Below the pieces are notes generated by a model. It worked only from the letters and a program-made list of their open reading frames with translations. It did no database searches and was not told the DNA's origin. Of a stretch of 28,262 nucleotides of DNA, positions 6,864 through 24,206 are shown piece by piece. Position 1 is the first letter of the stretch. Every line of letters begins with the position of its first letter. Origin of the DNA: Phycisphaerae bacterium. GTDB lineage: Bacteria; Planctomycetota; Phycisphaerae; Sedimentisphaerales; SM23-30. The position numbers were made by a program, and so were the translations under genes. The stretch covers positions 1-28,262 of the forward strand of contig JAIPFO010000001.1 in NCBI GenBank assembly GCA_021736565.1. The letters run 5' to 3'.

Positions 6864-7837
6864 TACAACACCTCCAATAAAGAAATAATTAACACACAAG
6901 CCACATCAGCTTGCTTTATTTTAAAATATATTATTAACTGAACTTTAAAAAAAACATTGGCTACAGATATGTAACAGCAGAAGCAGAACTCTACTCCTAT
7001 GACACAAGCCGTAGTACGAATAGCTCATTTGTGCCTAAGAACACCTTAAAGCCTTACTATATTGTGTTACTTTTACGAAAATTTTTCTGGCCAGGCTTGT
7101 GTAATATGAAATAACTCTGGAACAGGCTGGACAGTACACCTGGTAATGTTTGTAAAAGTTCTTTTTAAAATATCGATATAGGGCATATAATATAAAAAAA
7201 TTGAAAAAGTTCAGTAATTATTCAGACTTATCCTGCTTTATATAACTAACATATAGTTGGCAGTTTAACCATGGCCCCGATTACACTGCTACATTCGAAC
7301 ACATTAACAATGAAAGCAATCAACACTTCACAATGCACCTAAAACTGGCATACGCTAACTAAATGGCTCTCGCTCTTACGGAAATATCCATAGAAATACA
7401 AGCCGCACACCATGCCAAACAAGGCACCTTAATCAAAAAAACACAAAGAAAGGAAGACATGGAAAACCATCAATCCTCCAATGCACCTCAATGTTAGAAT
7501 TCATTATTGCGTAATTTTCGAAAAATGTCAAGAAAATAATACCATTTTTTTGCAATAATTGAGTCAAAAGTCAATATTGTCACCTAAAAACGGCAATTAA
7601 AGAGAGTACTAATCCGCCAAAGTCGAACCAGCATCTTTACTAATATCTTTAACGCAAAAGACTATTTTATTTGAGCAATATACCCGTATTTAATAACCAA
7701 GAGATGGTATGATGGCGAAAAGTGCCGGCATCTTTGTCGCGGTCAAGCTGGCGTTGGTACAAATAGGTGCTTTCGTCTATCGATAAAGAGATAGTTTTCC
7801 TGTACTTGGACACTCAAGCAATCCAGAGAACCCTCTC

Positions 7838-7993: not shown

Positions 7994-8069
7994 TCAGGAT
8001 GGCATTCTAACAGCCCTGCGGCAGTTTCTCTATAAATCAATTAAAACCGAGGACTTAGGAACAATAAAA

Positions 8070-8120
8070 TGTAGACTTTAGTGTAGATTTTAACACTAAA
8101 AACGTTCATAAGTGCTTATT
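8070..8120. other. Direct-repeat pair plus short palindrome next to the tRNA 3' end (possible integrase arm/att-flank relic)
   Basis: tgtagactt (8070-8078) and tgtagattt (8082-8090); ataag-tg-cttat around 8108-8119. Confidence 0.4.
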
Positions 8121-8126
8121 CTATAA

Positions 8127-8213
8127 CGGAGAGGGGGGGATTCGAACCCCCGGTACGGTTGCCCGCACACTGGTTTTCGAAACCAGCTCCTTAAGCCGCT
8201 CGGACACCTCTCC
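8127..8213 (-). tRNA. tRNA-Ser (anticodon CGA), CCA not encoded
   Basis: Reverse complement is GGAGAGGTGTCCGAGCGGCTTAAGGAG-CTGGT-TT-CGA-AA-ACCAG, a long variable arm (TGTGCGGGCAACCGTACC), then GGGGGTTCGAATCCCCCCCTCTCC-G. Confidence 0.97.
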
Positions 8214-8344
8214 AGGATAATCATTCATCGGCCATTTTTTGGGCTTTTGATATTATCAAGAACATATCTATACCGAAATAAGCAAAAATATGCAAGAAAA
8301 TTTATATTAACCCGGTAATTTTTTTCTCGGCTTAAACGTTAGAT

Positions 8345-8373
8345 TTGACGATGGACTACAGATTTGCTAAAAT
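8345..8373 (+). promoter_or_regulatory. Sigma70-type promoter upstream of the deacetylase gene
   Basis: TTGACG (8345-8350), 17-bp spacer ending TGc (extended -10), TAAAAT (8368-8373). Confidence 0.7.
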
Positions 8374-8511
8374 GCTTAAACGTATCAAAAAACATACGCG
8401 TGGCCACAGACGTAAAAAAAGTGCTTTTTTTAAGCTTAAAAATGAATTTCAATTGGTGGCAGAGTTCAAATGATCGTTCGATGCCCCTTAGAGATATAGA
8501 GCCCAATAGCT

Positions 8512-9453
8512 ATGACAAAGACATTATTTGGATATGACAGTTGCTTTCTGGAACATTTAACCGGGGAGCATCCCGAGGGACCGGATCGCCTGGTGAGTAT
8601 TGTGGAGGCGATTGAGAAAAATGGGATGACCGAGGCCCTCCTTCCCGTAAAAAAACGGGTAGCGGTGGACCCATGGATCCAACAAATCCACACGAAAGAT
8701 TATATCGAGCGGTTTCGCCTGGCGTGTGAAAATGGCGAAACCTATATCGATTCGGCAGAATCGGCGATATGCCCCAAATCGTACGAGATTGCTCGTGTAG
8801 CGGTTTCGGTGACACTGGCGGCATGTGACATGATCATGGCGGGTGAAGCGAATAATGGCTTTTGCGCCCTTCGACCGCCTGGCCATCACGCCGAAGTTGA
8901 TAAATCTATGGGATTCTGCATGTTCAACAACATAGCGATTGCGTGTAAATACCTACAAAAGCACCATGGCCTGAAGCGGATCTTGATTTTAGACTGGGAT
9001 GTTCACCATGGCAATGGCACACAGAACAGTTTTGAGCGTGACCCTTCGGTCTTGTTTTGCAGTTTCCACCAGCATCCGGCCACGCTATTTCCAGGAACCG
9101 GCTGGCCCCAAGAGCAGGGTGAAGGATTGGGACGCGGCTTTACCTTGAATCTCCCCCTGGAACCAGGATCGGGCGATAGCGAGTGTATGGAGCAGTTCCA
9201 GAGACGTTTTTTGCCGAAAGCGCACGAGTTTATGCCGGAGTTCATTCTGGTCTCGGCGGGATTCGACGGGCACATTGATGACCCGATGGCAGAGTTGGCA
9301 ATGACAGATACGGCCTTTGACGCGATAACCCTGGACGTTATGGAAATCGCCAATAAATATTGTAAAGGCAGAGTCTTGTCGATACTAGAAGGAGGCTACG
9401 ACCTGGAAACACTGGGCCGTTGTGTCGTGAAACACATAAAATGCATGATGTGA
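8512..9453 (+). CDS. Histone deacetylase-family (class II-like) Zn-dependent amidohydrolase
   Basis: HPEGPDRL, RPPGHHA, GFCMFNNIA, DWDVHHGNGTQ, SAGFDGH..DP and LEGGY. All catalytic and Zn ligands are intact. Confidence 0.94.
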   Translation: MTKTLFGYDSCFLEHLTGEHPEGPDRLVSIVEAIEKNGMTEALLPVKKRVAVDPWIQQIHTKDYIERFRLACENGETYIDSAESAICPKSYEIARVAVSVTLAACDMIMAGEANNGFCALRPPGHHAEVDKSMGFCMFNNIAIACKYLQKHHGLKRILILDWDVHHGNGTQNSFERDPSVLFCSFHQHPATLFPGTGWPQEQGEGLGRGFTLNLPLEPGSGDSECMEQFQRRFLPKAHEFMPEFILVSAGFDGHIDDPMAELAMTDTAFDAITLDVMEIANKYCKGRVLSILEGGYDLETLGRCVVKHIKCMM

Positions 9454-9460
9454 ACAAAAT

Positions 9461-9555
9461 TGACGCCAGCGTCAAACCCCGACAGACCGGGATTTGAAGC
9501 CCATTTTCCGCATCCGAAGATGCGATTTTAAAGCCGAAAAATGACTTTTGGCGTG
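9461..9555 (+). repeat. Intergenic GCGTCA...TGACGCG repeat, copy A
   Basis: tgacgc-ca-gcgtca palindrome, then tttgaagcccattttccgcatc...atgacttttggcgtg. The last 64 bp align without gaps to copy B. Confidence 0.8.
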
Positions 9556-9656
9556 GAGGTCAAAATTATTATATTAAATGCACAGCCACTATCCCACAAG
9601 ATTGTTTCAGGTATGGGAATCGCTTTCACCATTTTACAAAAGTAAGGAGTTATTTT

Positions 9657-10766
9657 ATGAGTTCGACAATGAAATATATTTTAAGTCTCAGTTTATTCGT
9701 TCTTTTTACTGGCATAACAGGCTGCCATGAGCCTGAACTAAATGAACCGGCCAAGGTTCATGTGGAAAAAACAGCAGCGAAAAATATACCAACAGAAATG
9801 GTAGAGGTTCCGGAAAATAGCGCAACACTTCCGACGACACTGGGTAAAAGCAATGGGATTCTGGTCGCGAATACGATGGTCTATGATTTTGGAAAGGTTG
9901 AGCCGAATCAGAAGATCAATGGGGAGTTCATCCTGACCAATGAAGGGAAGCAACCGGTTAAAATGAAGCAGAAGGTACGTACAAGTTGCAGTTGTGTGGC
10001 GATGCCAACACTGGAAAAGCTTGAATTGGCACCGGGTGAGAGTGGGAAATTGACATTCGTATATACCACCAAGACAACGCCTGGGACCATAATGCAACGA
10101 CTTTACATCGACGTAACAGAAGGGTCGCCGAAAGTCTTGCCGCTGGCATTGAAAACTGAAGTTCAAAAGGTCATCACGGTCGAACCGGACACTTTAACAT
10201 TTAAACTGGAAAGCAACGCCCCGCAAGCAATTGAATTTACTTTGAATGCACTCGATAAAAAACCATTCTTGATCACCTCCATTAATGGGCTGGGGACCCA
10301 AAGCAGCACAACGTATGATAAGGATAAGAGTGCGGCCACCCAAAAGGTCACCGCGACTTTTGCCCCTGAGGATTTGCGTAAACATCCCAAAGGATGGTTA
10401 TTTATCAACACAAACCATCCTAAGGCAACAAGTTTGAGGGTCCCGTTCGAAACGACATTACCTTTCGCCGTCCGTCCTCCATCAAAGCAGATGATGAATG
10501 TGCAGCCGGGCAAGGTCTATAAGAGCAAAATCCATATCCTTTCTAATTATAACACTGAATTTGAAATAGGAAAAGTCACCAGTGAGAACAACTATGCTAC
10601 CATGACAAAGACGACCAAAACCAAAGGTGGGTATATTCTGGATGTTGAGTTTGTCTTGCCTGAAGATAAATCCCCAAAATATTTCCGGGATTATCTGCAC
10701 GTTGAAATTAAAGACCATCCAATGGACATGCAGAAAGTGCTGTTTTACGGCACTACACAACAGTAA
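9657..10766 (+). CDS. DUF1573-domain lipoprotein with tandem Ig-like domains
   Basis: Lipobox ITGC; YDFGKV...FILTNEG...VRTSCSCVA (DUF1573 SCxC motif); AAGGAG RBS. Confidence 0.8.
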   Translation: MSSTMKYILSLSLFVLFTGITGCHEPELNEPAKVHVEKTAAKNIPTEMVEVPENSATLPTTLGKSNGILVANTMVYDFGKVEPNQKINGEFILTNEGKQPVKMKQKVRTSCSCVAMPTLEKLELAPGESGKLTFVYTTKTTPGTIMQRLYIDVTEGSPKVLPLALKTEVQKVITVEPDTLTFKLESNAPQAIEFTLNALDKKPFLITSINGLGTQSSTTYDKDKSAATQKVTATFAPEDLRKHPKGWLFINTNHPKATSLRVPFETTLPFAVRPPSKQMMNVQPGKVYKSKIHILSNYNTEFEIGKVTSENNYATMTKTTKTKGGYILDVEFVLPEDKSPKYFRDYLHVEIKDHPMDMQKVLFYGTTQQ

Positions 10767-10772
10767 CGCCCA

Positions 10773-10849
10773 GCGTCATATGTGATTTTGACGCTCGTTT
10801 TCCGCATTTTAAAGGGCGACTTTAAAGTCAAGAAATGACTTTTGACGTG
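10773..10849 (+). repeat. Intergenic repeat, copy B (77 bp)
   Basis: gcgtca...acttttgacgtg. By hand alignment, 58/77 identical and gapless against copy C. Confidence 0.85.
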
Positions 10850-10902
10850 GATATCCATATAACATTGATCGTTTTTTTAATTCAACAAATTGAGGAATTT
10901 AG

Positions 10903-12348
10903 ATGCGAATTGCACCGTTAAATTGTCGCTTGAAAACAGCGGGCGTTTTGCTCGCTGTTTTTATTTGCTCACTGGCCCTGGCTCTCGGATGCATGGAAAA
11001 AAAGCGTACGGGGAAGCCCGATGGATCATCAGAGGGCAATTTTTCTATCTTACTCTCCGGAAACTGGATGGGGCATTTGGGGCCATGCGGATGCACGGAT
11101 AAACAACTTGGCGGGATCGACCGGCGAACAGAAAAGCTCCAGGAGATCGCACCTGACAAATCAAGGCGTTTGTTGATCGACGCCGGCCCATTGATCGAAC
11201 AAAGTGACCGGCAATCGCAGTTGAAATTACAAACATTTCTCTATAGTATGAAAGAGCTTGGCTATGATGCGGTGGGCTTGACACCTGAGGAAATAGTACT
11301 TCTTCATGAAACCATTGACACGACGCCAGCGGACAGGCCGGTGATTGTCTGTTCGAATATGAGTGCCGAGAACCGCAAGATCTATGGCGTCCAGAACTAC
11401 GTTTTCCGGGCCTTGAAGAGTAAGGGCCGGGTTCTCAATGCCCTGGTGATGGCGGTAGCGGATGGAGACAACATCAGCAACGATGAGGTCAGGGATAAGG
11501 TAAATCTGAAAGACCCTTTAGCATCCGTCAAAGAGATCCTTTCAAGCCTCAACATTCGGGCCGACCAGGGCTCCCCGGAAACGCTGGTCGTTGTGATGAC
11601 ATCAGACTCAAATGAAACACTCATGAGACAATTACAGGAGATCAAGGCGATTGATTTGCTGGTCAAGCGTGGTTTTTTTGACGAACCAGAAAAGATCGCG
11701 TCAAAAAAAGGCAAGTCCATAACGGTTACGACCGGTAAGATGGGAAAATATCTTGCCCAGGTGACCGTTCCAGGTGACGTTGCGATTAAAGCAGAAAACT
11801 TCGGTTTCAAGGCCGTGGAAATTCTGGATACCTTCAAACAGGACCCGGCCATTACCGCCATGTTTACCGACTATCAAATGCGTATGGAGTTGGAAAAGCT
11901 CATTGAAGAAGGATTATCCCGAATGGTCCTGCCCGATCCGGAAAATTCTTTTGTCGGAAGTCATACCTGCCAGCGATGTCATGGCGACATTTTCAAACAA
12001 TGGCAGAAGAGCAAGCACGGTCATGCCCTACTTAGCCTGACGGACCCGAAAGTCAATCGACAGTATGATCCTGAATGCATGGCCTGTCATACGGTAGGAA
12101 TGCGTTATGAAACAGGTTATCGGTCAATAGAGTCAACGCCAAACCTGGCCAATGTGGGCTGTGAAATGTGCCATGGCCCAGGTAGTAAACATGTCAAAAG
12201 CCCAAAAAAGAATCCTTATTTAACCGCATTTGTTGCGTGTGAAGATTGTCATGACCATGAAAACAGTCCACGATTTGAAGCCAACCGGGAACATTATTTT
12301 AAAGAGATCCGTCACTGGAAGAACGAACCCCGCCAGCATTGGAAATAA
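10903..12348 (+). CDS. Lipoprotein: UshA/5'-nucleotidase-like N-terminal domain fused to a tetraheme c554-like cytochrome c domain
   Basis: Lipobox LALGC; GHLGPCGC...GGIDRR...LLIDAG; four CxxCH motifs (CQRCH, CMACH, CEMCH, CEDCH). Confidence 0.88.
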   Translation: MRIAPLNCRLKTAGVLLAVFICSLALALGCMEKKRTGKPDGSSEGNFSILLSGNWMGHLGPCGCTDKQLGGIDRRTEKLQEIAPDKSRRLLIDAGPLIEQSDRQSQLKLQTFLYSMKELGYDAVGLTPEEIVLLHETIDTTPADRPVIVCSNMSAENRKIYGVQNYVFRALKSKGRVLNALVMAVADGDNISNDEVRDKVNLKDPLASVKEILSSLNIRADQGSPETLVVVMTSDSNETLMRQLQEIKAIDLLVKRGFFDEPEKIASKKGKSITVTTGKMGKYLAQVTVPGDVAIKAENFGFKAVEILDTFKQDPAITAMFTDYQMRMELEKLIEEGLSRMVLPDPENSFVGSHTCQRCHGDIFKQWQKSKHGHALLSLTDPKVNRQYDPECMACHTVGMRYETGYRSIESTPNLANVGCEMCHGPGSKHVKSPKKNPYLTAFVACEDCHDHENSPRFEANREHYFKEIRHWKNEPRQHWK

Positions 12349-12399
12349 AGACACGCACACTCACCATGGTGACCAACCGAAGCATTAAATGTGATGGTT

Positions 12400-12483
12400 G
12401 CGTCAAAAGTCCATATTGACGCGTAAAAACATCGATTAAGCAGCAATATCCAGAATTCAAAAAAACTTATGACACTGGCGTCA
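12400..12483. repeat. Partial repeat ends or short hairpins of the same family
   Basis: gcgtcaa-aagtccata-ttgacgc (12400-12422) and tgacac-tg-gcgtca (12470-12483). Confidence 0.6.
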
Positions 12484-12691
12484 AATGTTGTATTTAGTAA
12501 TTCAGATGTGACAAAAATTGGTCGATAGTTCATTATGTATGATAATGCCGATTAAATGGTTTGTATAATCATTTAGTCGTTTTTTTTGGAACTTGTATAG
12601 CGATATTGAGTCTAAAGTAAGACCTTGTTTCGAACTTTTAGAAAAATGAGTGGCACTGGAAGACTTTTTTGTGTAAAAAGTTACGTTCGAA

Positions 12692-12722
12692 GACAAGATA
12701 GATAAAATGGATAAGATAGACA
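12692..12722. repeat. Degenerate nonamer tandem repeat
   Basis: gacaagata-gataaaatg-gataagata-gaca. It resumes after repeat copy C as aagata-gacaacctt-gacaac. Confidence 0.6.
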
Positions 12723-12725
12723 TCT

Positions 12726-12802
12726 GCGTCATAATTATTTTTGAAGCCCGTTTTCTGCATCATAAAGGGTGATTTCAAATACAATATTTAACTTTTGACG
12801 CG
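12726..12802 (+). repeat. Intergenic repeat, copy C (77 bp)
   Basis: gcgtcataattatttttgaagcccgttttctgcatcataaagggtgatttcaaatacaatatttaacttttgacgcg. Confidence 0.85.
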
Positions 12803-12843
12803 GGAACCAAGATAGACAACCTTGACAACGGGGTAATAGCCTG

Positions 12844-14352
12844 GTGATGAGATATATTTGGCATATCAATGGAATTCTGGCGGCGGTAGCCTTAGGGGTC
12901 CTGTATTTTGGGCTTACTGGAATACCTAAAGCCCTGATAACCGGAAGCGATACCACCGGGACAGTTTCCAGTTCTATGAATGGTAAAAATGGTTCATTAA
13001 CCGATAACAACGGTGATACCGCCATGGTTGAAGCGGCAAGGCTATTCACGAGGCGGTTTGGGCCGCCCATTGGGACAGTAAATATCCTTATCGAACCCCA
13101 GAACGCTATTACCCAGGGAGCACAATGGAAAATTAATACCAGCCCATTCCTCAATAGCGGCCAATTGGCCCAGAGTGTCGCAGCGGGGAATCACGTGATC
13201 GGGTTTAAGGAAATTGAAGGATACCATGCGCCCAAACCATTTAAAATAACGGTAGGACGTGAACAAACAGTAAAGGAAATTGGAAAATATATCCTGATCC
13301 CCCCCCCGGAATATGGCAAGTTACGCATAACGCTCGGTCCTGAGGGGATCGTGGGCAAAGGGGGTAAATGGAAGGTTGACAAGGGGGAATGGCAGGAAAG
13401 CGGCGCAACTTCAGAAAAAATATTAGTGGGAAGTCATCAGGTTACCTTTGCCGGTGTGGCGGATTACGATCCACCGGCGGCCATGAGCGTTACAATTGAA
13501 AAAGATCAAACGGTAGATCAAACGGCGGATTATAAACGGATTGATTATGGTTCAGTACTGGTCAATCTCTCGCCAGAGGATGCGGTAAAAGCCGGAGTCA
13601 AGTGGCGGGTCAAAGGGAATTCAACCTGGTATCAAAGCGGCGAGACCGATATTAAAGCCCGGGCAGGAACCCAAACCATTGAATTCCAAGGGACACAGCG
13701 ATGGAAAGCTCCTGCCGCAATAGCGGTTGACGTGGTCAAAGATGAGCTTTTCACTACGGAGGCGGTTTTTGAGTGGATTATTCTCAAACAGGGCTCGATC
13801 ATTGTAAAAATCATGCCAAACGATTCCACATTAACAATGGCTCAATGGCAGCTCAATGGCAAAGGCGATTGGTACAACAGTGATGAGAAGGTCGGCCCCA
13901 TTGATGAAGGGAAATATTCGATCAACTTCAAGCCGGTCGCCGGTTGGAATCCGCCGGATGCGATGAATGTAGAGGTTGTCATTGATCAGATAAGCGACCT
14001 GGAAGCCCTGTATCGTAAGCCCAAGCCGGCCCCTCCAGCCTTCACCCTGACGGCGACTATTGTATTGCCGCCCAAGGGTGGGATTGTCTGGGTGAAATTA
14101 CCCAAGGCCACACGGGACCATGTATTCCTGATCGGTGAGATGATCGATACGGACTATAAACTTATCGAGGTACGACACGGCATCGCGGTGGTCAACCGTG
14201 GTGGGTATGACTTCACCTTGACGATTCCCAAGCCATCGCCACCCAAACTAGCCCCCCCGAAGTCTACGACAACAGAAAAACCAATGATACCTTCTCGCCG
14301 TCCACCGATCCAGAAATCACCGATACCGCGAAAACCAAGTATTAAAAAATAA
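12844..14352 (+). CDS. GspC-like inner-membrane protein: TM anchor, four ~80-aa Ig/PEGA-like repeats, C-terminal HR (GspC/PilP-like) domain, Pro/Lys tail
   Basis: N-terminal TM (GILAAVALGVLYFGL); four repeats G(T/K/S)xxx...W...G...F...(Y/W)xxP; FTLTATIV...GIVWV...VFLIGEMIDTDYKLIEVRHGIAVVNRGG; located just upstream of gspD. Confidence 0.65.
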   Translation: MMRYIWHINGILAAVALGVLYFGLTGIPKALITGSDTTGTVSSSMNGKNGSLTDNNGDTAMVEAARLFTRRFGPPIGTVNILIEPQNAITQGAQWKINTSPFLNSGQLAQSVAAGNHVIGFKEIEGYHAPKPFKITVGREQTVKEIGKYILIPPPEYGKLRITLGPEGIVGKGGKWKVDKGEWQESGATSEKILVGSHQVTFAGVADYDPPAAMSVTIEKDQTVDQTADYKRIDYGSVLVNLSPEDAVKAGVKWRVKGNSTWYQSGETDIKARAGTQTIEFQGTQRWKAPAAIAVDVVKDELFTTEAVFEWIILKQGSIIVKIMPNDSTLTMAQWQLNGKGDWYNSDEKVGPIDEGKYSINFKPVAGWNPPDAMNVEVVIDQISDLEALYRKPKPAPPAFTLTATIVLPPKGGIVWVKLPKATRDHVFLIGEMIDTDYKLIEVRHGIAVVNRGGYDFTLTIPKPSPPKLAPPKSTTTEKPMIPSRRPPIQKSPIPRKPSIKK

Positions 14353-14363
14353 GCGATGGCATT

Positions 14364-14429
14364 CGCGTCACAAGTCGATCCGCCAAAAGTTGCTGATGGC
14401 GGATCAGCTTGAAAAGCACTGATGACGCG
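14364..14429. terminator. CGCGTCA...TGACGCG-bounded hairpin between convergent genes
   Basis: Outer inverted repeat cgcgtca/tgacgcg; inner gatccgcca-N11-tggcggatc (14377-14405). Confidence 0.6.
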
Positions 14430-14437
14430 GACATCCA

Positions 14438-14935
14438 CTATGGCACGTAAAGTCGCCATTGATCAAGTTCTTTGAAAAAACAAAAGCGAAAAGTGAATTG
14501 ATCGACCTGGAGTCGACGGTTCGGGCCTTTGCGATGCTTCACGACAATACTGGCACTCGCCTGTTGTGGATCATCGTCAAACGTAATTTCGACGGTGTCC
14601 GCATCCCATTGCTGGATAATAACCGTTGCAGCCGATGAGCCCAGCAGCCTTCGAGCGGTCATAAGCCCGATAAGGCGGGGGTCATTTTGGGCGGAGGGGA
14701 ATCGCCCCGGCTCGATATAATTCGCCAGGGTTTCATACTGACGGGCCGCCAGAGCGACCAGGATCTTATCCGTCATGGTCCAGATGGCCCTGCGATGAGC
14801 CGCGAATTGCTCATCAGCCCCCCCCTGGCCCTCCAACCGACCGCCTGACGGGGAACAAGACACTAAAAAGAACATCCCCAGGGCAATAACCAGGGAGCGA
14901 TGTAAACAAACCATTGAGGAACTAAAATTATTCAT
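14438..14935 (-). CDS. Small hypothetical lipoprotein, possibly NTF2-like fold
   Basis: Lipobox-like FLVSC after a hydrophobic stretch; helical N-half then beta strands ending in W-R-L-Y; divergent from gspD. Confidence 0.65.
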   Translation of the reverse strand: MNNFSSSMVCLHRSLVIALGMFFLVSCSPSGGRLEGQGGADEQFAAHRRAIWTMTDKILVALAARQYETLANYIEPGRFPSAQNDPRLIGLMTARRLLGSSAATVIIQQWDADTVEITFDDDPQQASASIVVKHRKGPNRRLQVDQFTFRFCFFKELDQWRLYVP

Positions 14936-14966
14936 AGTGGTCTAACCCTTGCCACGATTGACACCC

Positions 14967-15157
14967 GCGTCATATTTTTTTGAAGTCAAATTTCTAAGTC
15001 ATCACAACTGATCTTGAAAACAGTTATTCGCTTTTGAGATTCAAATCAGATTGACACTATTTTCGCCATAAAGACGCCTGCATCATAAGAATTTTGAAGT
15101 CCTATTTCAAATCACCCTTGAGGCTGATTTGAAATATAAAAATCAACTTTTGACGCG
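14967..15157 (+). repeat. Two tandem copies of the intergenic repeat (D1 degenerate ~14967-15040; D2 15080-15157)
   Basis: D1 begins gcgtcatattttttgaagtc. D2 ends caacttttgacgcg and contains the hairpin tatttcaaatca-N10-tgatttgaaata. Confidence 0.8.
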
Positions 15158-15245
15158 GGAGTCAGTAAACATCCTTATAAAATAACATAATGTTACAACA
15201 ATGTAACCCACAGAGTCTAACATAATAACGGAGTTATTAGTTACT

Positions 15246-18200
15246 ATGATGAATTCTAATGATTATAATATGCCAGAATCCAATAAAAATGCAAGTACCA
15301 ATCGTAAGAAATTTCCGATTCGGCCCGGCCATATATCCCGATGGCTCAAATCCCACCAACGGCTGATCGTGCTGGGGGTGGTGATCTTGAGTATTATGGT
15401 CTGGAGCGGCGCAGGGAGTATTGGTGCCGAGGAAAATAAGTCCGATAATCAGGACGTTATTATAACCGACGAAGATGCGACCCCTTCGGCTAAGGAAACA
15501 GATGACGCAACAAATGATGACCAGAAGGTTGAATCGTCCAACGACATGGCCGATGCAAACGCTATAGAGGAGTTCTCTCCTGAAGACCTCCAAATGATGG
15601 AATTGATGGAGAGATGGGCCAAATCAGCTGAAGAAAACCCTGGTTCAGAAGAATCGAAAGATCTGGAAAAGCAACTGGAATCGGTCATGGAAAAAGCATT
15701 GCAGAAGTCCAATCCGACCCAGCCAGACCCTGTTGTTCTGCCCCCCAAAAAACCTGTTGTCAAAACGCAAAAAAACAATCCGGTTAAGCCCCCCATAAAA
15801 CCCAACGGCACCAAGCCTCCTGTCAAGCCGATAAAGCCTGTCCTACCCAATAAAACTACAATCAAGCCTACCAAATCGCCTATTCTGACCACTCCGACCC
15901 AAACCAGTACAGCCACGACAGCAACCCCGGCGGCTGTCAATGAGGACACCGACGCTAAAGTCGATCCGTTTACTCCACCGGTTGACCCGGATTCAGTTCA
16001 GATCAAGGTAAAAGATGACATCATCGACTTACAGGTTCTGATGGAACATGTGGGTAAGGAACTTCAATTAAACTTCCTGTATGACAGCGAGACTTACCCT
16101 GTCGGGAAGGTCAGACTGCAGCAGTATGGAAAAATTCCCCGTAATATGTTATTACCCTTACTGGAACATGTATTGCAAAAAGCAGGTTTTTCAATGGTAA
16201 AAGATGCGCCCTACATTCGGATCGTCAAAGAAACGGATGTCATCAAGAGCACACCGGTTTTCCCATCGGCTCATAATAATTTATCTGATGCGTCACCTGA
16301 ATCGCTGGTCACTCATATCGTTGAAATTGAATATGTACAAGCCAGTCAAGTCAAATCGGCCCTGGCACAGTTTACGACCTCATTGATCACTCAGATACCT
16401 GAGAGCAACATATTGATCCTGACCGAATATCCCAACAAATTAACACGATTGCTGGAAATTATTACATTCTTGGACCGCGCCGGCCCGGTCTCTCGGATGG
16501 AAGTATTGCATCCAAAATATTTACCCGTACAAGACCTTCAGAAAAAAATTGAAACGTTGATGACTGCGTTAAATGCGCAGCAGGCGGTTTCTTCGGGCGG
16601 TTCTTCCAGCGTAAACACTCCCACGCCCAACTTAAGTAAGATGTCACCGGCGGATCGAATGAAATATATTCGTGATCAACGCGCCAGGAAAGAGGCCGCG
16701 GCGAAAGCTCCAGGGACTTCCAGCACCACTGCGACGACCAAGCCCCTGGCGGCCAAGATGATCGCCGAGCCGCGTACCGAACGGCTGTTTGTGATCGGAA
16801 CCGATGATCAGATCGCCCAGGTGAAGCACTTATCAGACCTCTTTGATGTGCCGCAACCCGGCCCGGATATCTTTCTTGAATCCCTGCCGATGAAGCACGT
16901 GGAGGCCAAATCCGTTGAATCCCAGATCAAGGCCCTGTTCACGGAATTATATGAAGCCAAACCTGACCCGGCAATGGGTGGCAGCGACGCGAGGGTACCG
17001 ACCCCCATCTCGCGGACACCAAGCCGCTCCACGCCAAGCCGTTCTGCGCCTAATCCAGAGCCATCACTAACCGGCAGCAGTCCGAGTCATGGTCCATTTA
17101 TGTTGGTGGATGAACGGGTCAACCGGATATTGATCGTCGCCTCACGGGAAATGATTGACCAGGTAAAAGATTTACTGCTCGTTCTGGATATTCCCGTACC
17201 GGGCGCAGAGTTTCATCTGAATGTTTTTGAGTTTGAATATCTGCAAGCCGCTGATGCCGCCGAAAAACTCAATAAATTACTGGAAGCACTCGCCAGTCAG
17301 AAAACGAAAGAAGAACCATCACCGCCGACACCGCCAACGCCTTCGTCGCGAACCTCTATTTCATCGCGGACCCCGGTAAAAACGCCGAGCGAAAGCGGGT
17401 TTATTAAGCCGGGCGATGAAGGCCCGTTCATGATCACTGACGAACGGACCAATCGGCTACTGGTGGTAGGGACCGATGAACAGGTCGAACGGATCAGGGA
17501 CTTGCTCACGCTGCTGGATGTGCCATTGCCAGGGGGGGCAATTGTGATTAAACAGATCAAGATCCAATACGTCGAAGCCGAGACGGTCAGCGGGCAATTA
17601 AGCGAACTGATCGAAGCGATCAATAACCCCGATAAGGCCAAATCAGACAGTTCTCCCTCCCCCACCCCGCCCACCAGTTCGCGAACGTCATACCCCAGAC
17701 CTCCAAGCCCGGGAACAACACCCCAAACAAAAGGTTTTGTCAAAACCGGTGACATGGGTCCATTTATGCTGGTCGAGGAAAGAACCAACCGGCTGATCAT
17801 CGTCGGGACCGAAGAGCAGATCGTCCAGGTTGAAGAGTTACTGGGCATGCTGGATATTGCCGGTATTCAAATCAGGCTGGATGTGGTCGAGCTGAAATTT
17901 GTAGAGGCCGAAAGCGTGGCCGGTCAGATCGCCGAATTGATCGAGGCACTTAATAGCGGTAAACCCTCCCAGTCAAGTGTTAAATCTGGAACGAGCGAAG
18001 GGTCGCAACCTTCAACCCCAATAACTCCGATAAGAACATCCTCATCCTACAGGCCCCCTCCACAGGCCAGCCCATCCAAACAACTCCTCAAGACCTCGGA
18101 AGGAGGCCCATTCCTTGTTACCGATGGTCGAACGAACCGGTTACTGGTCGTCGGAACAGACGACCAGATTCGGCAGGTGCATGAACTGCTGGCGGTTCTG

Positions 18201-21098
18201 GATATTTCCGGCGAAGCGATCCTGATCGAAACCTATATCGTCGAACATGTGAATATTGAAAAAGTGACCGAACAACTCATGGAACTGGTTCCGGCACTTC
18301 GCAGCGACGAACCCAATAAAACCCCCGGAAAGCCTTCTTCGAATCGCACGAGCAGCACACCAACACGGTCAATGCCCGACGGGCTCAGAACGCCCTCCTC
18401 ATCCTCGTCGTCGTCACAAAGCAGTCGCTCACAAATGGTGAGCCCCTCCGAAGAGGGTCCATTATTGATCGCCGACCCCCGGACCTATCGGATTCTTGTC
18501 GTCGGAACCCAGGATCAGATTTCCCAGGTCGGTGACCTGCTGGTCATACTGGATGTGCCACTGAAAATTGAGATCCTGCCCTACCAGATGAAATATATCC
18601 CGGCAGACACTGCCGCTGAACAACTCAGCCAGTTATTGCAGGCCATTAACGTTGACGAGGACAGCTCGTCATCATCAGGCCGCCCAAAAACATCGCCTCA
18701 ATTAGTCGGACCGCCTCAGCCAGGTTCCCCGAGCAATCGCTCATCATTATCCTCGCGAAATCGCAGTTCTTCTTCCGGCCAGGGTGTCCAACTTGTCCAG
18801 GCCACCTCCAGCGGGCCCTATCTTCTGGCCGATGTAAGAACGAGTCGACTGATTATTATCGGTTCGGCACGTAAGGTCTCTGAGGCCCAGGAATTCCTCT
18901 CGCTACTGGATGTAAAAGTAGATCGTACGCTGGTATCACTACCGGTGAAACATGTCGAGCTTGAAACCATAACGAACCAGGTGGCCGATTTATTGGCGGT
19001 TTTGAACGAGCAGGAAGGCGCCGAGGCCTCTAGTAAGGGGTTATCCTCCTCGGGCCGCCGGTCGACACGAAGCAACACGACAGGGCGCACCGCGAACAGC
19101 GGTGGGATCACCGGGGGCATCACTCCCACCAATCAAACATCATCGTCCAGTAACAGTGTGGGCTCCTTGATCGAGATCATCCCGGCAGGGCCGTTTTTAC
19201 TGGCGAACGAACGAACCAGCCATCTGCTGGTGATCGGCAGTGTAAAACAGATCGAGCAGGTCCAGGATTTACTGAAGATGCTGGATGTTGACATGAACTT
19301 CAAACTCTACCCCGAGCAGATAACCAACGTTGCGGCCAGTGAGCTGGCCGGTCAGTTAGGAAACCTTATGGTATCGCTCACGGGTAAAGATCAAGTGTAT
19401 GGGGCCAGCTCCAGTGCCGGCAGTGCACGGAGCGGTTCCAGCCGAACGGGCAGTTCTACAAGCAGTCGAACCAATACCCCATCCGGGCAGACCATGATCA
19501 AAGTCACCGCCCAGGGCCCCTACCTGTTGCCCGATGACTCTACCAATCGATTACTGGTCGTAGCAACCGACAAACAGTATCAATCCGTCAAAGATTTACT
19601 GCCGGTATTGGATGTGTATAATGAATTCGGCCAGCGCCGATTGAAAACCTATCAGCCTAAATATGTCAATGCGACCGAAGTGATCAAGATACTGGATGAT
19701 TTGGGGATCACCAATAAGAAAGAATCAGGCGATATGCGACCGCGGGAGCGGGCGGGATTACTGGACAGGCCCGACCAGAGCGTCATTGCCGGCCAGCCCG
19801 GTGAAATGGCCTTTTTACCGGGAATGGAAGAACCGGATGTCTATGTCGCGGTACTGGAAACAATGAATAAGATTTTTGTCTACGGTCTGGAGTATCAGAT
19901 CAAGGGCATTGACGAGATCATGAAACATATCGACCTGGACCCCACCGATGCGTTTGGTCAATATGAGATCATTCCGCTGGAGAACCAGGATCCTGAATAT
20001 GTGTCCGATTGGCTCAGTGAGCTATTGGACACCGACCGCTATGAAAAGATCGGAGAGAACACGAAACTGGTTGACGGGGCGGAAGGCGCCCCGAAAATCG
20101 TTCCACTGGTCGAGATCTATTCGATCGGTGTTCGAGGTTCGGCCCGACAGCGAGAAGAGATCAAGAAGATAATCGACGTTCTGGACCGGCGAAAGCCCCA
20201 GGTCTTTGTTGAAGCAATTCTGGTACAATTAAATGAAAGTTCCGGGTTGAGCCTGGGCGTTCAGTTACAGGAAATATTTAAATCCGGCGGTGATAATATT
20301 TCGGTCCAGACCCCGTTTGGCTTCGGAGCGACGATGGGAACCAGTGGCGTTCTGAGCGGGTCCGGGTTAACGCTCGGTTATTATGATACAGATTTTGTCA
20401 AGGCCTCCATTGAAGCCATGGCGGATGAAGGCAATGGCAAAGTGGTCTCCATGCCCCGTATCACCGTGAATGACAATGAAGATGCGACGATGACCAGCGA
20501 ACGGGCAGAACCGACAACCGAGGTGGTGCTGCAGCCGGGTTCTGATACCACACGGGAAACCTTCAAAGGCTATGAAACCGCCGGGACAACACTGACGATT
20601 AAACCGCATATCAGTGAAGGTGATTTTCTGCAACTGGAGATCGGATTAAAGGTTGACAGCTTTGATGGAAAATCCCAGGGCAGTGTTCCGCCCCCCAAAA
20701 ACAGCAATGATATTAAAACAAATGTTACGGTTCCCAATAATATGATCGTTATCCTGGGTGGTTTGAAATCTCAGAACAATGGCACCTCGATAAGTAAAGT
20801 GCCTCTGCTGGGTGACCTGCCGCTTATCGGGTCACTGTTCAGAAGCGTCAACCATTCGGAGACCAGCGGTTATCTGTATGTGTTTGTCAAGGCCCAGATC
20901 ATTCGAAGTCCGGAAGATAAAAATAATCAAGCGGACTTTAGTGACCTGAAACGAATTTCCGAGAAAGCCTGGAACGAGAAAGAATCCCGAAAGATCAATT
21001 TCCGTGAGAAGCCGATCATTCCGGGTATCAAAATGAAAAAAGAAATGGATGACGAAGGCGACTCCAGCAGCCGGGAGACATTTTCCTCGCCCTACTAA
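15246..21098 (+). CDS. gspD: Giant type II secretion secretin (1950 aa): low-complexity N-terminus, N0, ~12 Secretin_N domains, secretin core, S-like tail
   Basis: N0 (DLQVLMEHVGKELQLNFLYD...LLEHVLQKAGF); repeated DERTNRLxxxGTxxQ...LD units; D..KPQVFVEA, MPRITVND, GTTLTIKPHI, IVILGGL, KVPLLGDLPLIGSLFR; directly upstream of gspE. Confidence 0.95.
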   Translation: MMNSNDYNMPESNKNASTNRKKFPIRPGHISRWLKSHQRLIVLGVVILSIMVWSGAGSIGAEENKSDNQDVIITDEDATPSAKETDDATNDDQKVESSNDMADANAIEEFSPEDLQMMELMERWAKSAEENPGSEESKDLEKQLESVMEKALQKSNPTQPDPVVLPPKKPVVKTQKNNPVKPPIKPNGTKPPVKPIKPVLPNKTTIKPTKSPILTTPTQTSTATTATPAAVNEDTDAKVDPFTPPVDPDSVQIKVKDDIIDLQVLMEHVGKELQLNFLYDSETYPVGKVRLQQYGKIPRNMLLPLLEHVLQKAGFSMVKDAPYIRIVKETDVIKSTPVFPSAHNNLSDASPESLVTHIVEIEYVQASQVKSALAQFTTSLITQIPESNILILTEYPNKLTRLLEIITFLDRAGPVSRMEVLHPKYLPVQDLQKKIETLMTALNAQQAVSSGGSSSVNTPTPNLSKMSPADRMKYIRDQRARKEAAAKAPGTSSTTATTKPLAAKMIAEPRTERLFVIGTDDQIAQVKHLSDLFDVPQPGPDIFLESLPMKHVEAKSVESQIKALFTELYEAKPDPAMGGSDARVPTPISRTPSRSTPSRSAPNPEPSLTGSSPSHGPFMLVDERVNRILIVASREMIDQVKDLLLVLDIPVPGAEFHLNVFEFEYLQAADAAEKLNKLLEALASQKTKEEPSPPTPPTPSSRTSISSRTPVKTPSESGFIKPGDEGPFMITDERTNRLLVVGTDEQVERIRDLLTLLDVPLPGGAIVIKQIKIQYVEAETVSGQLSELIEAINNPDKAKSDSSPSPTPPTSSRTSYPRPPSPGTTPQTKGFVKTGDMGPFMLVEERTNRLIIVGTEEQIVQVEELLGMLDIAGIQIRLDVVELKFVEAESVAGQIAELIEALNSGKPSQSSVKSGTSEGSQPSTPITPIRTSSSYRPPPQASPSKQLLKTSEGGPFLVTDGRTNRLLVVGTDDQIRQVHELLAVLDISGEAILIETYIVEHVNIEKVTEQLMELVPALRSDEPNKTPGKPSSNRTSSTPTRSMPDGLRTPSSSSSSSQSSRSQMVSPSEEGPLLIADPRTYRILVVGTQDQISQVGDLLVILDVPLKIEILPYQMKYIPADTAAEQLSQLLQAINVDEDSSSSSGRPKTSPQLVGPPQPGSPSNRSSLSSRNRSSSSGQGVQLVQATSSGPYLLADVRTSRLIIIGSARKVSEAQEFLSLLDVKVDRTLVSLPVKHVELETITNQVADLLAVLNEQEGAEASSKGLSSSGRRSTRSNTTGRTANSGGITGGITPTNQTSSSSNSVGSLIEIIPAGPFLLANERTSHLLVIGSVKQIEQVQDLLKMLDVDMNFKLYPEQITNVAASELAGQLGNLMVSLTGKDQVYGASSSAGSARSGSSRTGSSTSSRTNTPSGQTMIKVTAQGPYLLPDDSTNRLLVVATDKQYQSVKDLLPVLDVYNEFGQRRLKTYQPKYVNATEVIKILDDLGITNKKESGDMRPRERAGLLDRPDQSVIAGQPGEMAFLPGMEEPDVYVAVLETMNKIFVYGLEYQIKGIDEIMKHIDLDPTDAFGQYEIIPLENQDPEYVSDWLSELLDTDRYEKIGENTKLVDGAEGAPKIVPLVEIYSIGVRGSARQREEIKKIIDVLDRRKPQVFVEAILVQLNESSGLSLGVQLQEIFKSGGDNISVQTPFGFGATMGTSGVLSGSGLTLGYYDTDFVKASIEAMADEGNGKVVSMPRITVNDNEDATMTSERAEPTTEVVLQPGSDTTRETFKGYETAGTTLTIKPHISEGDFLQLEIGLKVDSFDGKSQGSVPPPKNSNDIKTNVTVPNNMIVILGGLKSQNNGTSISKVPLLGDLPLIGSLFRSVNHSETSGYLYVFVKAQIIRSPEDKNNQADFSDLKRISEKAWNEKESRKINFREKPIIPGIKMKKEMDDEGDSSSRETFSSPY

Positions 21099-21111
21099 TA
21101 AGAAATGCTTA

Positions 21112-21192
21112 CGCGTCCAAAGTTAATTTTGAATTCCGTGTCCATTTTGTATTGATGATCATTTTATACGACGCGAAGAATGGACTTCAAAA
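21112..21192 (-). repeat. Intergenic repeat, copy E (inverted, with ~17-bp insertion)
   Basis: Reverse complement reads ttttgaagtccattcttcgcgtcgtataaaatgat...ttaactttggacgcg. Confidence 0.75.
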
Positions 21193-21223
21193 CCACTGAG
21201 AACCTGGCGCCAAGAAGGAACTT

Positions 21224-22942
21224 ATGAAAGAACAGTTACTTGAGATAGCTCGCACGAAGCAGATATTAGACGCGGAGATGTTGGAGCATTTCATAACCCA
21301 ATATGAATCGACCCAGAGGGGCGATCATGATGGCGATGGAGAGACTCTGGACGCGGCCCTGCTGCGTTCGGGCCATTTCACCGAAGATGAGATCTTGCGA
21401 CTTTTTGGCGAATACCTGGAGATCCCCTTCCTGGAGCAGATCCAGCCGGCGATGGTCCCCGCGCATTTTGTCACGTCGGTCCCGTCCAATTACGCGCACC
21501 ATCATCACCTGGTGGCGACCGACCAGAACGATTCGACGATGACGATAGCGGTCTGCAAACCGTTGAGTTTGTATCCGCTGGACAATGTCGCCAAGATGGT
21601 CGGCCGGGCGGTCTCACCGGCCCTGGCGACCAAGGCCACGATCAATACCGCGATTAACGCCGCCTACGAACAGCGAACGACGGTATTGGAAGATGTGGCT
21701 GGTGATGTCGATAGCCATAGCCTGGAAGGGCTGCTGGGCGACGCCTCGAATTCCGAAGACCTTCTTGATGTCGTTAATCGTCCGCCCGTGATTCGCCTGG
21801 TCAATGACATCTTGTTTAAAGCCCTCCAGATGCGCACCAGTGATGTCCATATTCACCCGTTTGAACAGCGGGTCGTCATCCGCTATCGCATCGACGGCTT
21901 GCTCTATGACATGCTCACGCTGGATTATCGTACCCTCCCGGTCATTGTCTCACGTATTAAGGTGATGGCAGGGATGGATGTTGCCGAACGTCGCATGCCG
22001 CAGGATGGCCGGTGCAGTGTGCGGATCGGACCGCGGGAGATCGACCTGCGTGTCAGTACCGTGCCGACGGCCTATGGTGAACGGACGGTGCTGCGTCTGC
22101 TGGATAAAAGCTCCGGGGTGTATAACTTGAAGGACTTGGGGCTGGGCGAATCGGAGTTTGGCCGGATTGATGAATTGATCAAACGGCCGCACGGTATTTT
22201 CTTTGTCACCGGTCCGACCGGCAGCGGTAAAACGACCACACTCTACAGTTTTCTACAGCGAATTGATTCGACGACAAAAAATATTATTACCGTCGAAGAC
22301 CCGATCGAATATCAGCTTGACGGGATCAGCCAGATCCAGGTGGCCACCAAAAAAGGAATGACCTTTATCACCGCCCTGCGTCATGTCCTGCGACAGGACC
22401 CCGATGTCATTATGATCGGTGAAGTCCGTGACGAAGAAACCGCTCGCATGGTGATCCAGTCGTCCCTGACCGGCCACCTGGTGTTCAGCACGCTCCACAC
22501 CAACGACGCTTCCGGCGCGGTCACGCGTCTTCTGGATTTCGGGGTGGAACCCTACCTGGTGGCCTCCTCCGTCGCGGGTGTATTGGCCCAGCGGCTCGTG
22601 CGGCGACTATGCCCTCATTGCAAAGAAATAATCCCATCGGATTCAAAACAAATCCAGAAGCTGGGACTCAGTCATGCGGGATTTGAGAAAGTCTACCACA
22701 GCAAAGGCTGTGACAAGTGCTTCCAGACGGGCTACATGGGGCGAACGGGGATATATGAACTCATGACGATCAATGACGACATACGTCAGGGCATCTATCA
22801 GCGGGGCACCGCCGGTGCGATAAAAAAATCGGCGATTGAAGCGGGCATGACCACGCTGAGAATGGATGGCCTTCGAAAAGTGGAAGAAGGCGTGACGTCC
22901 CTGGAGGAAGTTTTACGCATAGCACAATCGGATGACGTCTGA
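21224..22942 (+). CDS. gspE: Type II secretion ATPase GspE/PulE
   Basis: SDVHIHP, RYRIDG, DVAERRMPQDG, Walker A GPTGSGKTT, TVEDPIEY, LRQDPDVIMIGEVRD, STLHTNDA, tetracysteine CPHC...CDKC. Confidence 0.96.
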   Translation: MKEQLLEIARTKQILDAEMLEHFITQYESTQRGDHDGDGETLDAALLRSGHFTEDEILRLFGEYLEIPFLEQIQPAMVPAHFVTSVPSNYAHHHHLVATDQNDSTMTIAVCKPLSLYPLDNVAKMVGRAVSPALATKATINTAINAAYEQRTTVLEDVAGDVDSHSLEGLLGDASNSEDLLDVVNRPPVIRLVNDILFKALQMRTSDVHIHPFEQRVVIRYRIDGLLYDMLTLDYRTLPVIVSRIKVMAGMDVAERRMPQDGRCSVRIGPREIDLRVSTVPTAYGERTVLRLLDKSSGVYNLKDLGLGESEFGRIDELIKRPHGIFFVTGPTGSGKTTTLYSFLQRIDSTTKNIITVEDPIEYQLDGISQIQVATKKGMTFITALRHVLRQDPDVIMIGEVRDEETARMVIQSSLTGHLVFSTLHTNDASGAVTRLLDFGVEPYLVASSVAGVLAQRLVRRLCPHCKEIIPSDSKQIQKLGLSHAGFEKVYHSKGCDKCFQTGYMGRTGIYELMTINDDIRQGIYQRGTAGAIKKSAIEAGMTTLRMDGLRKVEEGVTSLEEVLRIAQSDDV

Positions 22943-22957
22943 CCCCATCGTCCTAAG

Positions 22958-22972
22958 TCAACTTTTGACGCG
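22958..22972 (+). repeat. Right-end fragment of the intergenic repeat (copy F)
   Basis: tcaacttttgacgcg, 13 bp before the gspF ATG; identical to the end of copy D2. Confidence 0.7.
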
Positions 22973-22985
22973 AGAGTTAATTATT

Positions 22986-24206
22986 ATGCCAACCTTTGAA
23001 TACATCGCTTTAGATCGTCAGGGAAAACAGGTTCGCGGCAGCATCGCCGCTGAATCGGCTTCCGCTGCGCGCAAACTGATGCGGACCCGGCAGCTGCATA
23101 CCAAAAAGCTGCGGTCTGTCAGCGAGGCATCCCACAGCGGCAGCTTTGAACTGGGCCAGTTATTCAGCAGTAAACGCCGGCGAATGGTCTTGGAGTTCAC
23201 CAAGCAATTGGCCACGATGATCAAGGCGGATGTCAAATTGACCGAATCGCTGGGGGTCATGATCGCGCAATCCACCGATCCAAAGTTCACCCAGATATTG
23301 CAGAATATCCGTGACCAGCTTCTCTCGGGTGAAAACCTGGCCGATGGGCTCAGGGAATATCCCGGTTGGTTTGACACGATCTATGTCTCGATGGTGCGGG
23401 TCGGTGAAGCGACAGGCAACCTGGGCCGATCGCTGAATCTGCTGAGCGAATATATCGGTAAACGCCAGAAACTGGAAACCAAGGTCAAATCGGCCCTGAC
23501 CTATCCGGCGGTACTGGTGGTGATCTGTCTCCTGGCCACCGTGTTTTTAATGACAGTCGTTGTACCGAAGCTGGCGAAGATTATTATCAGTAGCGGTAAG
23601 GAACTACCCGCCGTGACACAAATCATGATGAATACCAGTAATTTTCTGATTAGCTGGTGGTGGCTGGTACTTATCGCCCTGGCGTTTGGCAGCTGGATGT
23701 TACGACAATTTATCCGATCGAACAAAGGCCGGACCCTGTTTGACCGGTTGATATTGAGAATACCGGTTATTGGCGAATTGATGCGTCAGAGTATTGTCGC
23801 ACGATTTTCATCGACGCTTGCCGCACTGATTCGCAGCGGGATGCCGATTGCCGACAGTCTCAAGATCGTCGCCGATGTCACAGGTAATACGATCATGAAT
23901 AAAGCGGTTCGCGAGGCGCGGGATCGCATTATCGGCGGGGCCGATATCGCCACACCTCTCCGTGAAAGTAAAGTCGTCGGACCGGCGGTGGCCCATATGA
24001 TCTCGGTGGGCGAGCGATCGGGCGAATTGGAATCCATGCTCGTTACCGTTGCCAAGGATATCGAAGAAGCGACCGATGAGACGGTTCAGCGGATCAGCTC
24101 GGTGATCGAACCGGTGATCATTGTTGTCATGGCAGTCGTTGTCGGGCTGATTATTTACTCGATTGTCCTGCCGATCATGCAGGTGTCCGATATTGGAGGG
24201 ATATAA
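22986..24206 (+). CDS. gspF: Type II secretion inner-membrane platform protein GspF/PilC
   Basis: MPTFEYIALDRQGKQVRGSIAAES, FTKQLATM, MVRVGEATGNL, ALTYP, MISVGERSGEL, SVIEP. Start moved from 22932 to ATG 22986. Confidence 0.95.
   Translation: MPTFEYIALDRQGKQVRGSIAAESASAARKLMRTRQLHTKKLRSVSEASHSGSFELGQLFSSKRRRMVLEFTKQLATMIKADVKLTESLGVMIAQSTDPKFTQILQNIRDQLLSGENLADGLREYPGWFDTIYVSMVRVGEATGNLGRSLNLLSEYIGKRQKLETKVKSALTYPAVLVVICLLATVFLMTVVVPKLAKIIISSGKELPAVTQIMMNTSNFLISWWWLVLIALAFGSWMLRQFIRSNKGRTLFDRLILRIPVIGELMRQSIVARFSSTLAALIRSGMPIADSLKIVADVTGNTIMNKAVREARDRIIGGADIATPLRESKVVGPAVAHMISVGERSGELESMLVTVAKDIEEATDETVQRISSVIEPVIIVVMAVVVGLIIYSIVLPIMQVSDIGGI

Follow-up and report, generated by a model that had tools for sequence, protein, structure and literature searches.

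The Correia elements of Neisseria (CREE/NEMIS) are non-coding sequences of ~100 bp with terminal inverted repeats of ~20-26 bp; hundreds of copies make up about 2% of the genome, nearly all of them intergenic, often lying just upstream of genes or inside operons and forming long hairpins. They duplicate the dinucleotide TA, promoter, IHF and RNase III functions have been documented for them, and in Neisseria they act as co-opted cis-modules; to our knowledge, no parent insertion sequence (IS) has been identified. Here we describe a short repeat family found in a contig of 28,262 bp (the window, which is the entire contig) from a Sedimentisphaerales metagenome-assembled genome (MAG), where its copies lie between the genes of a region encoding cytochromes and a type II secretion system (T2SS). 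[quoted passage not shown]

Elements of the IS1182 family, as defined in ISfinder, measure ~1.3-1.95 kb, carry a single open reading frame (ORF) and end in terminal inverted repeats. The family is described as heterogeneous; some members target palindromes, and IS1272 takes the place of a stem-loop in the target without generating a duplication (PMC5678879). The non-coding element MITEPye1 of Paracoccus yeei has terminal repeats of 18 bp similar to those of an IS from the IS1182 family; it lies in intergenic DNA, folds into a stem-loop, is flanked by 4-bp direct repeats and is present in 1-3 copies per chromosome (PMC11578231). In Methanosarcina acetivorans, the ISMac2-related MITEs (160-169 bp, 7-14 copies) have 25-26-bp inverted repeats and 0-4-bp direct repeats, and were assigned an IS1182-family partner by their ends (PMC3852290). 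MITEs tied to the IS1182 family have therefore already been documented.

Repeat unit, genome-wide distribution and target sites

The parent assembly of the window comprises 2.94 Mb in 290 contigs at 49% GC, and is 70.8% complete and 0.6% contaminated. The repeat unit was defined by aligning the flanks of every ACTTTTGACGC site, followed by iterated nhmmer. A preliminary description of the window had taken the unit to be 77 bp long, with terminal palindromes as separate marks; it is in fact ~90 bp (modal length 85-95 bp) and the palindromes belong to it. The unit has no coding capacity, being too short for a transposase gene. Two subtypes, T1 (759 copies) and T2 (166 copies), have their ends in common and unrelated cores; the T1 core carries a conserved motif, GTTTTCCGCATCTTAAAG, and is as well conserved as the termini. 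The terminal inverted repeats are ~19 bp long, with the consensus TGACGCC-N-GCGTCA-W-AAGT; the left end and the reverse-complemented right end can be aligned along ~19 nt around GCGTCAWAAGT, and each terminus contains the palindrome TGACGC-NN-GCGTCA. The inverted end motifs first noted in the window were reproduced and lie far above chance across the genome: the 11-mer ACTTTTGACGC occurs 167 times against ~1.4 expected, and TGACGC-NN-GCGTCA 135 times against ~0.2. The 12-mer ACTTTTGACGCG has 68 genome occurrences, and the spacing of inward-facing terminus pairs peaks at 85-95 bp (136 of 249 pairs).

Two hairpin modules recur in the genome. The GC-rich module RTCCGCC-N3-14-GGCGGAY is present at window positions 14377-14411 and at 17 other genome sites, within MITE copies and at varying positions, taking the place of the T1 AT hairpin or of the left sub-terminal part of T2. 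The other, CCCGGC-N2-6-GCCGGG, occurs 35 times.

By nhmmer the family totals 931 copies, which amount to 79 kb or 2.7% of the assembly and are dispersed on contigs throughout it. About a third of the intergenic regions (570/1747) hold a copy. A crude ORF map places 705 copies wholly between genes, and all except ~9 of the ~100 apparently genic copies fall in short spurious ORFs or over-extended 5' ends; once these artefacts are discounted the intergenic share is at least 98%. The repeats were also considered as a cause of assembly fragmentation, and this was rejected: a copy is found at 13-15 of the 580 contig ends, not above expectation.

These figures bear directly on the suggestion, made from the window alone, that the repeat is a conserved operator or RNA structure of the cytochrome/T2SS operon alone, tuning the expression or stoichiometry of its genes. 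It was said that copies fill nearly every gap of this region, and 6 of the 7 gaps within 9.4-23 kb do hold a copy or remnant; such filling is, however, not special to the locus. The density in the window (0.25 copies/kb) is under the genome mean of 0.32/kb, the window contig ranks 69th of 106 by copy density, and 15% of 13.6-kb windows contain at least 7 copies. The genome-wide count, named beforehand as the observation that would tell against a T2SS-specific role, runs to hundreds of copies with no enrichment in the window, and an element specific to the operon is refuted by it.

The copies are flanked by 6-bp direct duplications. Among near-full copies (n=466) the duplication is exact in 79, compared to 0 with shuffled partners, and the flanks match at 5 or more of 6 positions in 179, compared to 12. 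In the strict seed sets exact duplications flank 17/96 T1 and 9/43 T2 copies (shuffle means 0.6 and 0.4), and registers other than 6 bp gave nothing. The proportion of exact duplications drops with copy quality, from 31% through 12% to 8% by score tertile, as would be expected if element and duplication both decay with age. The consensus of the target is roughly AWNWTT.

The locus was found in two public sequencing runs only, and in no RNA run: a lake-water metagenome, which is probably the source of the window DNA, and a marine-sediment metagenome with a ~93%-identical relative. A contig of this relative covers window positions 8481-9451, continues for 11 letters and resumes at 9561; the junction reads ...GTGAAC-AAAATT-ATTATATT. 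Here copy A (Table 1) is represented by its flanks and one AAAATT, and the element is absent, which makes this a precise empty site. Contigs of the relative are continuous through copies D/E (14203-15402, 15 gaps) and F (20859-22237, 2 gaps), which must therefore be older, shared insertions. The family is mostly old, with at least one insertion that postdates the split from the relative. The 28-mer of the empty site had no match in JGI metagenome contigs, and a related-locus search based on the multihaem cytochrome yielded a single relative, which at 46% identity is not close enough for an empty-site comparison.

An insertion sequence with matching ends in a confamilial genome

An 18-nt terminus was searched for in 30 relatives. 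It is found in 10 of 18 confamilial genomes, unevenly (0 to ~200 matches each), and 0-1 times in other families of the order. In a scan of named genomes the carriers were Sedimentisphaerales MAGs (Phycisphaerae, Planctomycetota), with scattered single chance matches elsewhere; an exact-pattern scan of genome contigs gave nothing with a 24-mer and gave matches with the 18-mer. T2-like MITEs of ~85 bp with the same ends and visible duplications are present in the confamilial genome G015 and in other Sedimentisphaerales MAGs.

In G015, terminus matches lie ~35 nt from many contig ends, which is a sign of a longer multicopy repeat. One contig of this genome (C161, 1903 bp) has perfect 19-bp inverted repeats, TGACGCCTGCGTCAAAAGT, at both bounds, and these are identical to the MITE left end at 18 of 19 positions. 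Its single ORF encodes a protein of 578 aa with the Pfam domains DDE_Tnp_1_6 and DDE_Tnp_1, both above cut-offs. Of the NCBIfam profiles, transpos_IS1182 matches best, with E 2.6e-48 over positions 31-484 of its 488 but a score below the curated cut-off, and the nearest annotated plasmid homologues, less than 30% identical, are labelled IS1182 family. In its length, its one ORF and its terminal inverted repeats the element falls within the architecture of that family. The preliminary description had called for a search for a RAYT (REP-associated tyrosine transposase, where REP stands for repetitive extragenic palindrome) or a DDE transposase with the same termini; the latter was found, in a confamilial genome, and a RAYT gene flanked by the repeat was not.

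From the G015 contig ends 19 IS-flank junctions were gathered (9 right, 10 left). The hexamers of 8 of the 9 right junctions are exactly paired among the 10 left ones, against a shuffle mean of 1.0; all flanks are A-N4-T, and other registers are without a match. It follows that the IS and the MITE make the same 6-bp duplication at the same type of site. Fragments of the transposase were found in three further genomes (G007, G011 and G017). G015 also has a second transposase copy, 74% identical (contig C12), and a variant IS left end (TTGCTTAGGCGGCAG...; C138-type junction), so that at least two IS sublineages coexist there.

In the genome of the window organism, the single DDE_Tnp_1 gene (contig C45) was considered as the autonomous partner and rejected, as it is not bracketed by the termini. 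The same genome has no rve gene, and a search in it for long-range terminus pairing with matching 6-mers gave no convincing IS.

The termini, the direct duplications of 6 bp, the number of copies and their position between genes are all shown here, as are one empty site and a relative's IS with matching ends, and at the level of sequence the family has every feature by which a prokaryotic MITE is recognised. In the mechanism that we propose, the DDE transposase of the IS1182-like IS would bind the MITE ends in trans and excise or copy the element; insertion at A-N4-T (AWNWTT-like) sites would proceed through a 6-bp staggered cut, repair of which would leave the 6-bp direct duplication. The likely reasons for the gathering of copies in intergenic DNA are AT-rich sites together with selection removing genic insertions, and inserted copies would then decay as neutral sequence. 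Any influence of the copies on the cytochrome and T2SS genes would be incidental.

Copies and genes in the window

The copies in the window were located by nhmmer with T1 and T2 profile models and are listed in Table 1 with the genes around them.

Table 1. Family members, flanking duplications and selected genes (positions in the window unless a contig is named)
Feature	Position	Strand	Remarks
T2 fragment left of the tRNA-Ser gene	7557-7612	-	T2 seed model positions 30-86, E 1.9e-6
Histone-deacetylase-family gene	8512-9453
T1 copy A	9462-9561	+	E 4e-18; extra CCCG..CGGG hairpin module
Duplication AAAATT, copy A	9456-9461 and 9562-9567		perfect, 6 bp
DUF1573 protein gene	9657-10766
T1 copy B	10766-10855	+	nhmmer match 10770-10855, E 8e-22
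Multihaem cytochrome gene	10903-12348
Complete T2 copy	12393-12482	-	T2 model positions 1-90, E 1e-18
Duplication AAATGT, T2 copy	12387-12392 and 12483-12488		perfect
T1 copy C	12719-12808	+	E 5e-21
Duplication AAGATA, copy C	12713-12718 and 12809-12814		perfect
Short degenerate member	14361-14435	.	weak match, E ~0.003-0.008
T1 copy D, decayed	14960-15038	+	E 4e-6; left terminus intact, right end eroded
T1 copy E, altered core	15073-15163	+	E 1.5e-15; fold z -5.8
Secretin gene	15246-21098		1950 aa, six Secretin_N repeats
T1 copy F, decayed, inverted, between the secretin gene and gspE	21112-21209	-	E 1e-6 to 1e-7
Solo right-end remnant (…ACTTTTGACGCGAGAGTT)	22947-22977	+	model positions 59-89, E 0.0085 (~0.0002-0.04 by model)
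Y1_Tnp (IS200/RAYT-like) genes L001-L005	contigs C157, C131, C126, C174, C191 of the parent assembly

The copies named in the preliminary description were all recovered (six matches, E from 1e-22 to 4e-6), and a recount of copies B and C gave exactly the 58/77 identities reported. Several of the smaller features have to be redrawn. The hairpins at 12400-12422 and 12470-12483, described as separate, are really both ends of the one T2 copy. That at 14364-14429 does belong to the family, not as a stand-alone hairpin but as a weak degenerate copy, in which GCGTCA...TGACGC ends enclose a GC-rich hairpin module (GATCCGCC...GGCGGATC) common to other copies; its fold has -34 kcal/mol and z -5.8. The right-end fragment seen at 22958-22972 proved to be a solo right end, which sits in the 43-bp gap between gspE and gspF. 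The statement that no copy lies left of the tRNA was not quite right, as shown by the T2 fragment there, which is an 81% match to 12398-12439.

Of the seven full copies that the window contains, three have perfect duplications. Copy B has flanks with no recognisable duplication; an additional C damages its left terminus, which adjoins or overlaps the DUF1573 gene at the TAA stop. The flanks of copy E agree at 4 of 6 positions (CATAAA / AGTAAA).

The genes of this region further include two unassigned ORFs, listed between the multihaem cytochrome and secretin genes, and those for GspE, GspF and GspG. The secretin is much longer than canonical GspD, and its gene has internal DNA repeats with a period of ~336-351 bp (families D1, D2 and D4). 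From gspE to the likely start of gspF (positions 22942-22986, ATG 22986) the sequence is nearly all MITE right-end remnant, so that the DNA directly upstream of the start codon of gspF is provided by the remnant. The T2 copy is separated from T1 copy C by an AT-rich spacer of 236 bp (12483-12718), upstream of the gene at 12844, which holds TGTATAAT, resembling an extended -10 motif; the true promoter of the downstream secretion genes may be located here. In the marine-sediment relative, 8 additional bases (TATGATGT) directly before the stop of the deacetylase-family gene (window 9445-9455) alter its C-terminus from ...CMM* to ...CMML*.

Alternative readings and known systems

A number of observations weigh against a simple MITE family moved by the IS1182-like transposase. 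The copies are not placed evenly, with a density of 1.9/kb in tandem gaps and 2.0/kb in divergent gaps compared to 1.0/kb in convergent ones, and their orientation relative to flanking genes is weakly biased (267 co-oriented to 197 anti-oriented, 58:42, p 0.0013). Some selection or insertion bias therefore exists; the higher tandem and divergent density could come from a preference for AT-rich targets or from selection. Most copies are old: the mean identity of T1 copies to the consensus is 77%, and only 17 T1 copy pairs are at least 95% identical. A perfect duplication is kept by only 17% of copies. The empty site is based on one assembled contig, not on reads. As regards the partner, the transposase of C161 scores 165 bits against the curated NCBIfam IS1182 cut-off of 270 bits, and its homologue was not found by tblastn in the window's own 71%-complete assembly; the mobilising enzyme in the window organism is thus inferred rather than seen. 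Further, the MITE cores are unlike the IS interior beyond the ~19-nt termini, which means that the MITE did not arise from the C161 IS by simple deletion.

The placement bias also counts in favour of the most probable of the alternatives, which accepts a MITE origin and holds that numerous copies across the genome were later co-opted to act in cis upstream of genes, for example as 5'-untranslated region (UTR) hairpins for transcript processing or stability, or as a host-factor site in the T1 core motif. The promoter-containing gaps, tandem and divergent, have twice the density of convergent ones, co-orientation with the downstream gene is weak but significant, the T1 core is conserved to the same degree as the termini, and there are variants with a GC hairpin in place of the AT hairpin at the same position. 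However, no covariation was seen beyond subfamily swaps, the copies have decayed to the mean identity given above, and the AT-rich target preference alone could account for the placement bias; co-option is considered unlikely. The right-end TTGACG was considered as an outward -35 box, and rejected: -10-like hexamers follow in 12/192 cases at spacings of 16-18, with no peak. A stronger proposal appears slightly less probable still, namely that recruitment of the copies has given the whole genome a layer of RNA hairpins, in 5'-UTRs or between cistrons, or of host-factor sites. A density of one per ~3 kb in a small planctomycete genome, the preference for positions upstream of genes, the conserved T1 core and the swappable hairpin modules could mean such recruitment. 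If so, the copies could shape transcript processing in operons such as the T2SS/cytochrome cluster, and MITE-borne regulation would exist in a phylum without such a description.

REP sequences and REPINs, paired palindromic repeats moved as single-stranded hairpins by RAYT, an IS200/IS605-like Y1 HUH transposase, were the other half of the MITE/REP-like suggestion in the preliminary description. Like the family described here, they are abundant, intergenic, palindrome-containing short repeats in inverted pairs; there is a small palindrome in each terminus, the inverted pair of ~25-nt units has a REPIN-like outline, and the genome contains five Y1_Tnp (PF01797) genes of ~180-236 aa. HUH Y1 transposases (IS200/IS605) insert without target duplication, however, while a variable 6-bp duplication is found around the copies here, well above chance. 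Whereas REPINs flank the RAYT gene, none of the five Y1_Tnp genes has the repeat on both sides, and one has an abutting copy, at about background density. The family thus fails both tests, and since a relative carries a DDE IS whose termini are identical and which makes the same duplication, movement by a RAYT is very improbable. The MITE half of the suggestion is borne out by the inverted repeats, the duplications, the ~930 copies, the empty site and the matching IS.

Individual copies do form stable hairpins (z -0.7 to -5.8). They do so by pairing of one end with the other, in architectures that vary among copies, as is expected of any element whose ends are inverted. An Rfam scan of positions 8000-24000 at E<=1 gave the tRNA only, and RNAalifold on 300 T1 copies gave no consensus structure on either strand. 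The covariance check proposed for a conserved RNA structure revealed no compensatory covariation beyond module swap: whether in the terminal palindrome, in the core hairpin or in the long-range terminal stem, compensatory double changes are no more frequent than after column shuffling, and most variation is pair-breaking. Mutual-information peaks were considered as helices and rejected, as alternative modules, either the insert CCCGGC..GCCGGG or the GC hairpin, account for them all. Thus, although 5 of the 6 full T1 copies in 9.4-23 kb are oriented like the genes, an operator or structured RNA dedicated to the cytochrome/T2SS operon can be set aside as the least probable reading of all, given the genome-wide copies, an orientation that is not strict genome-wide, the variable folds and the absence of copy A from a close relative with the same gene order.

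With the preferred reading, a MITE family with an IS1182-like partner, a dedicated regulator of the secretion and cytochrome operon is no longer called for and the similarity between the intergenic regions is explained. The family can now be described by clear boundaries, by its subtypes T1 and T2, by a 6-bp target of the form A-N4-T and by an IS1182-like element as its candidate partner, and adds a data point on the target choice of IS1182-like transposases. In these MAGs its copies could wrongly be annotated as promoters, small RNAs or regulatory motifs, and insertion polymorphisms may serve as strain markers. A full-text literature search gave no paper pairing MITEs with Planctomycetota, Phycisphaerae or Sedimentisphaerales, and this Sedimentisphaerales family appears to be previously undescribed.

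Compared to the known systems, MITEPye1 is alike in its IS1182-family-like ends, intergenic position, direct repeats and stem-loop; it differs in having 4-bp rather than 6-bp repeats and 1-3 rather than ~930 copies, and is unrelated in sequence and host phylum. The ISMac2-related MITEs are likewise short, multicopy and linked to IS1182, but are archaeal and far fewer in number. The IS of G015 has in common with IS1272 and other IS1182-family ISs a DDE transposase and terminal inverted repeats able to form a stem-loop; unlike IS1272 it leaves a clean 6-bp duplication, and its transposase is divergent from the annotated members at the level of identity given above. The Correia element is the closest counterpart in abundance, size and placement, with similar terminal inverted repeats, copy number, intergenic and upstream positions, and hairpin folding. 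The two are unrelated in sequence, and they differ in the promoter, IHF and RNase III roles, which are documented for Correia. Correia duplicates TA, whereas this family duplicates 6 bp at A-N4-T and, unlike Correia, for which we know of no parent IS, has a matching IS1182-like IS in a confamilial genome.

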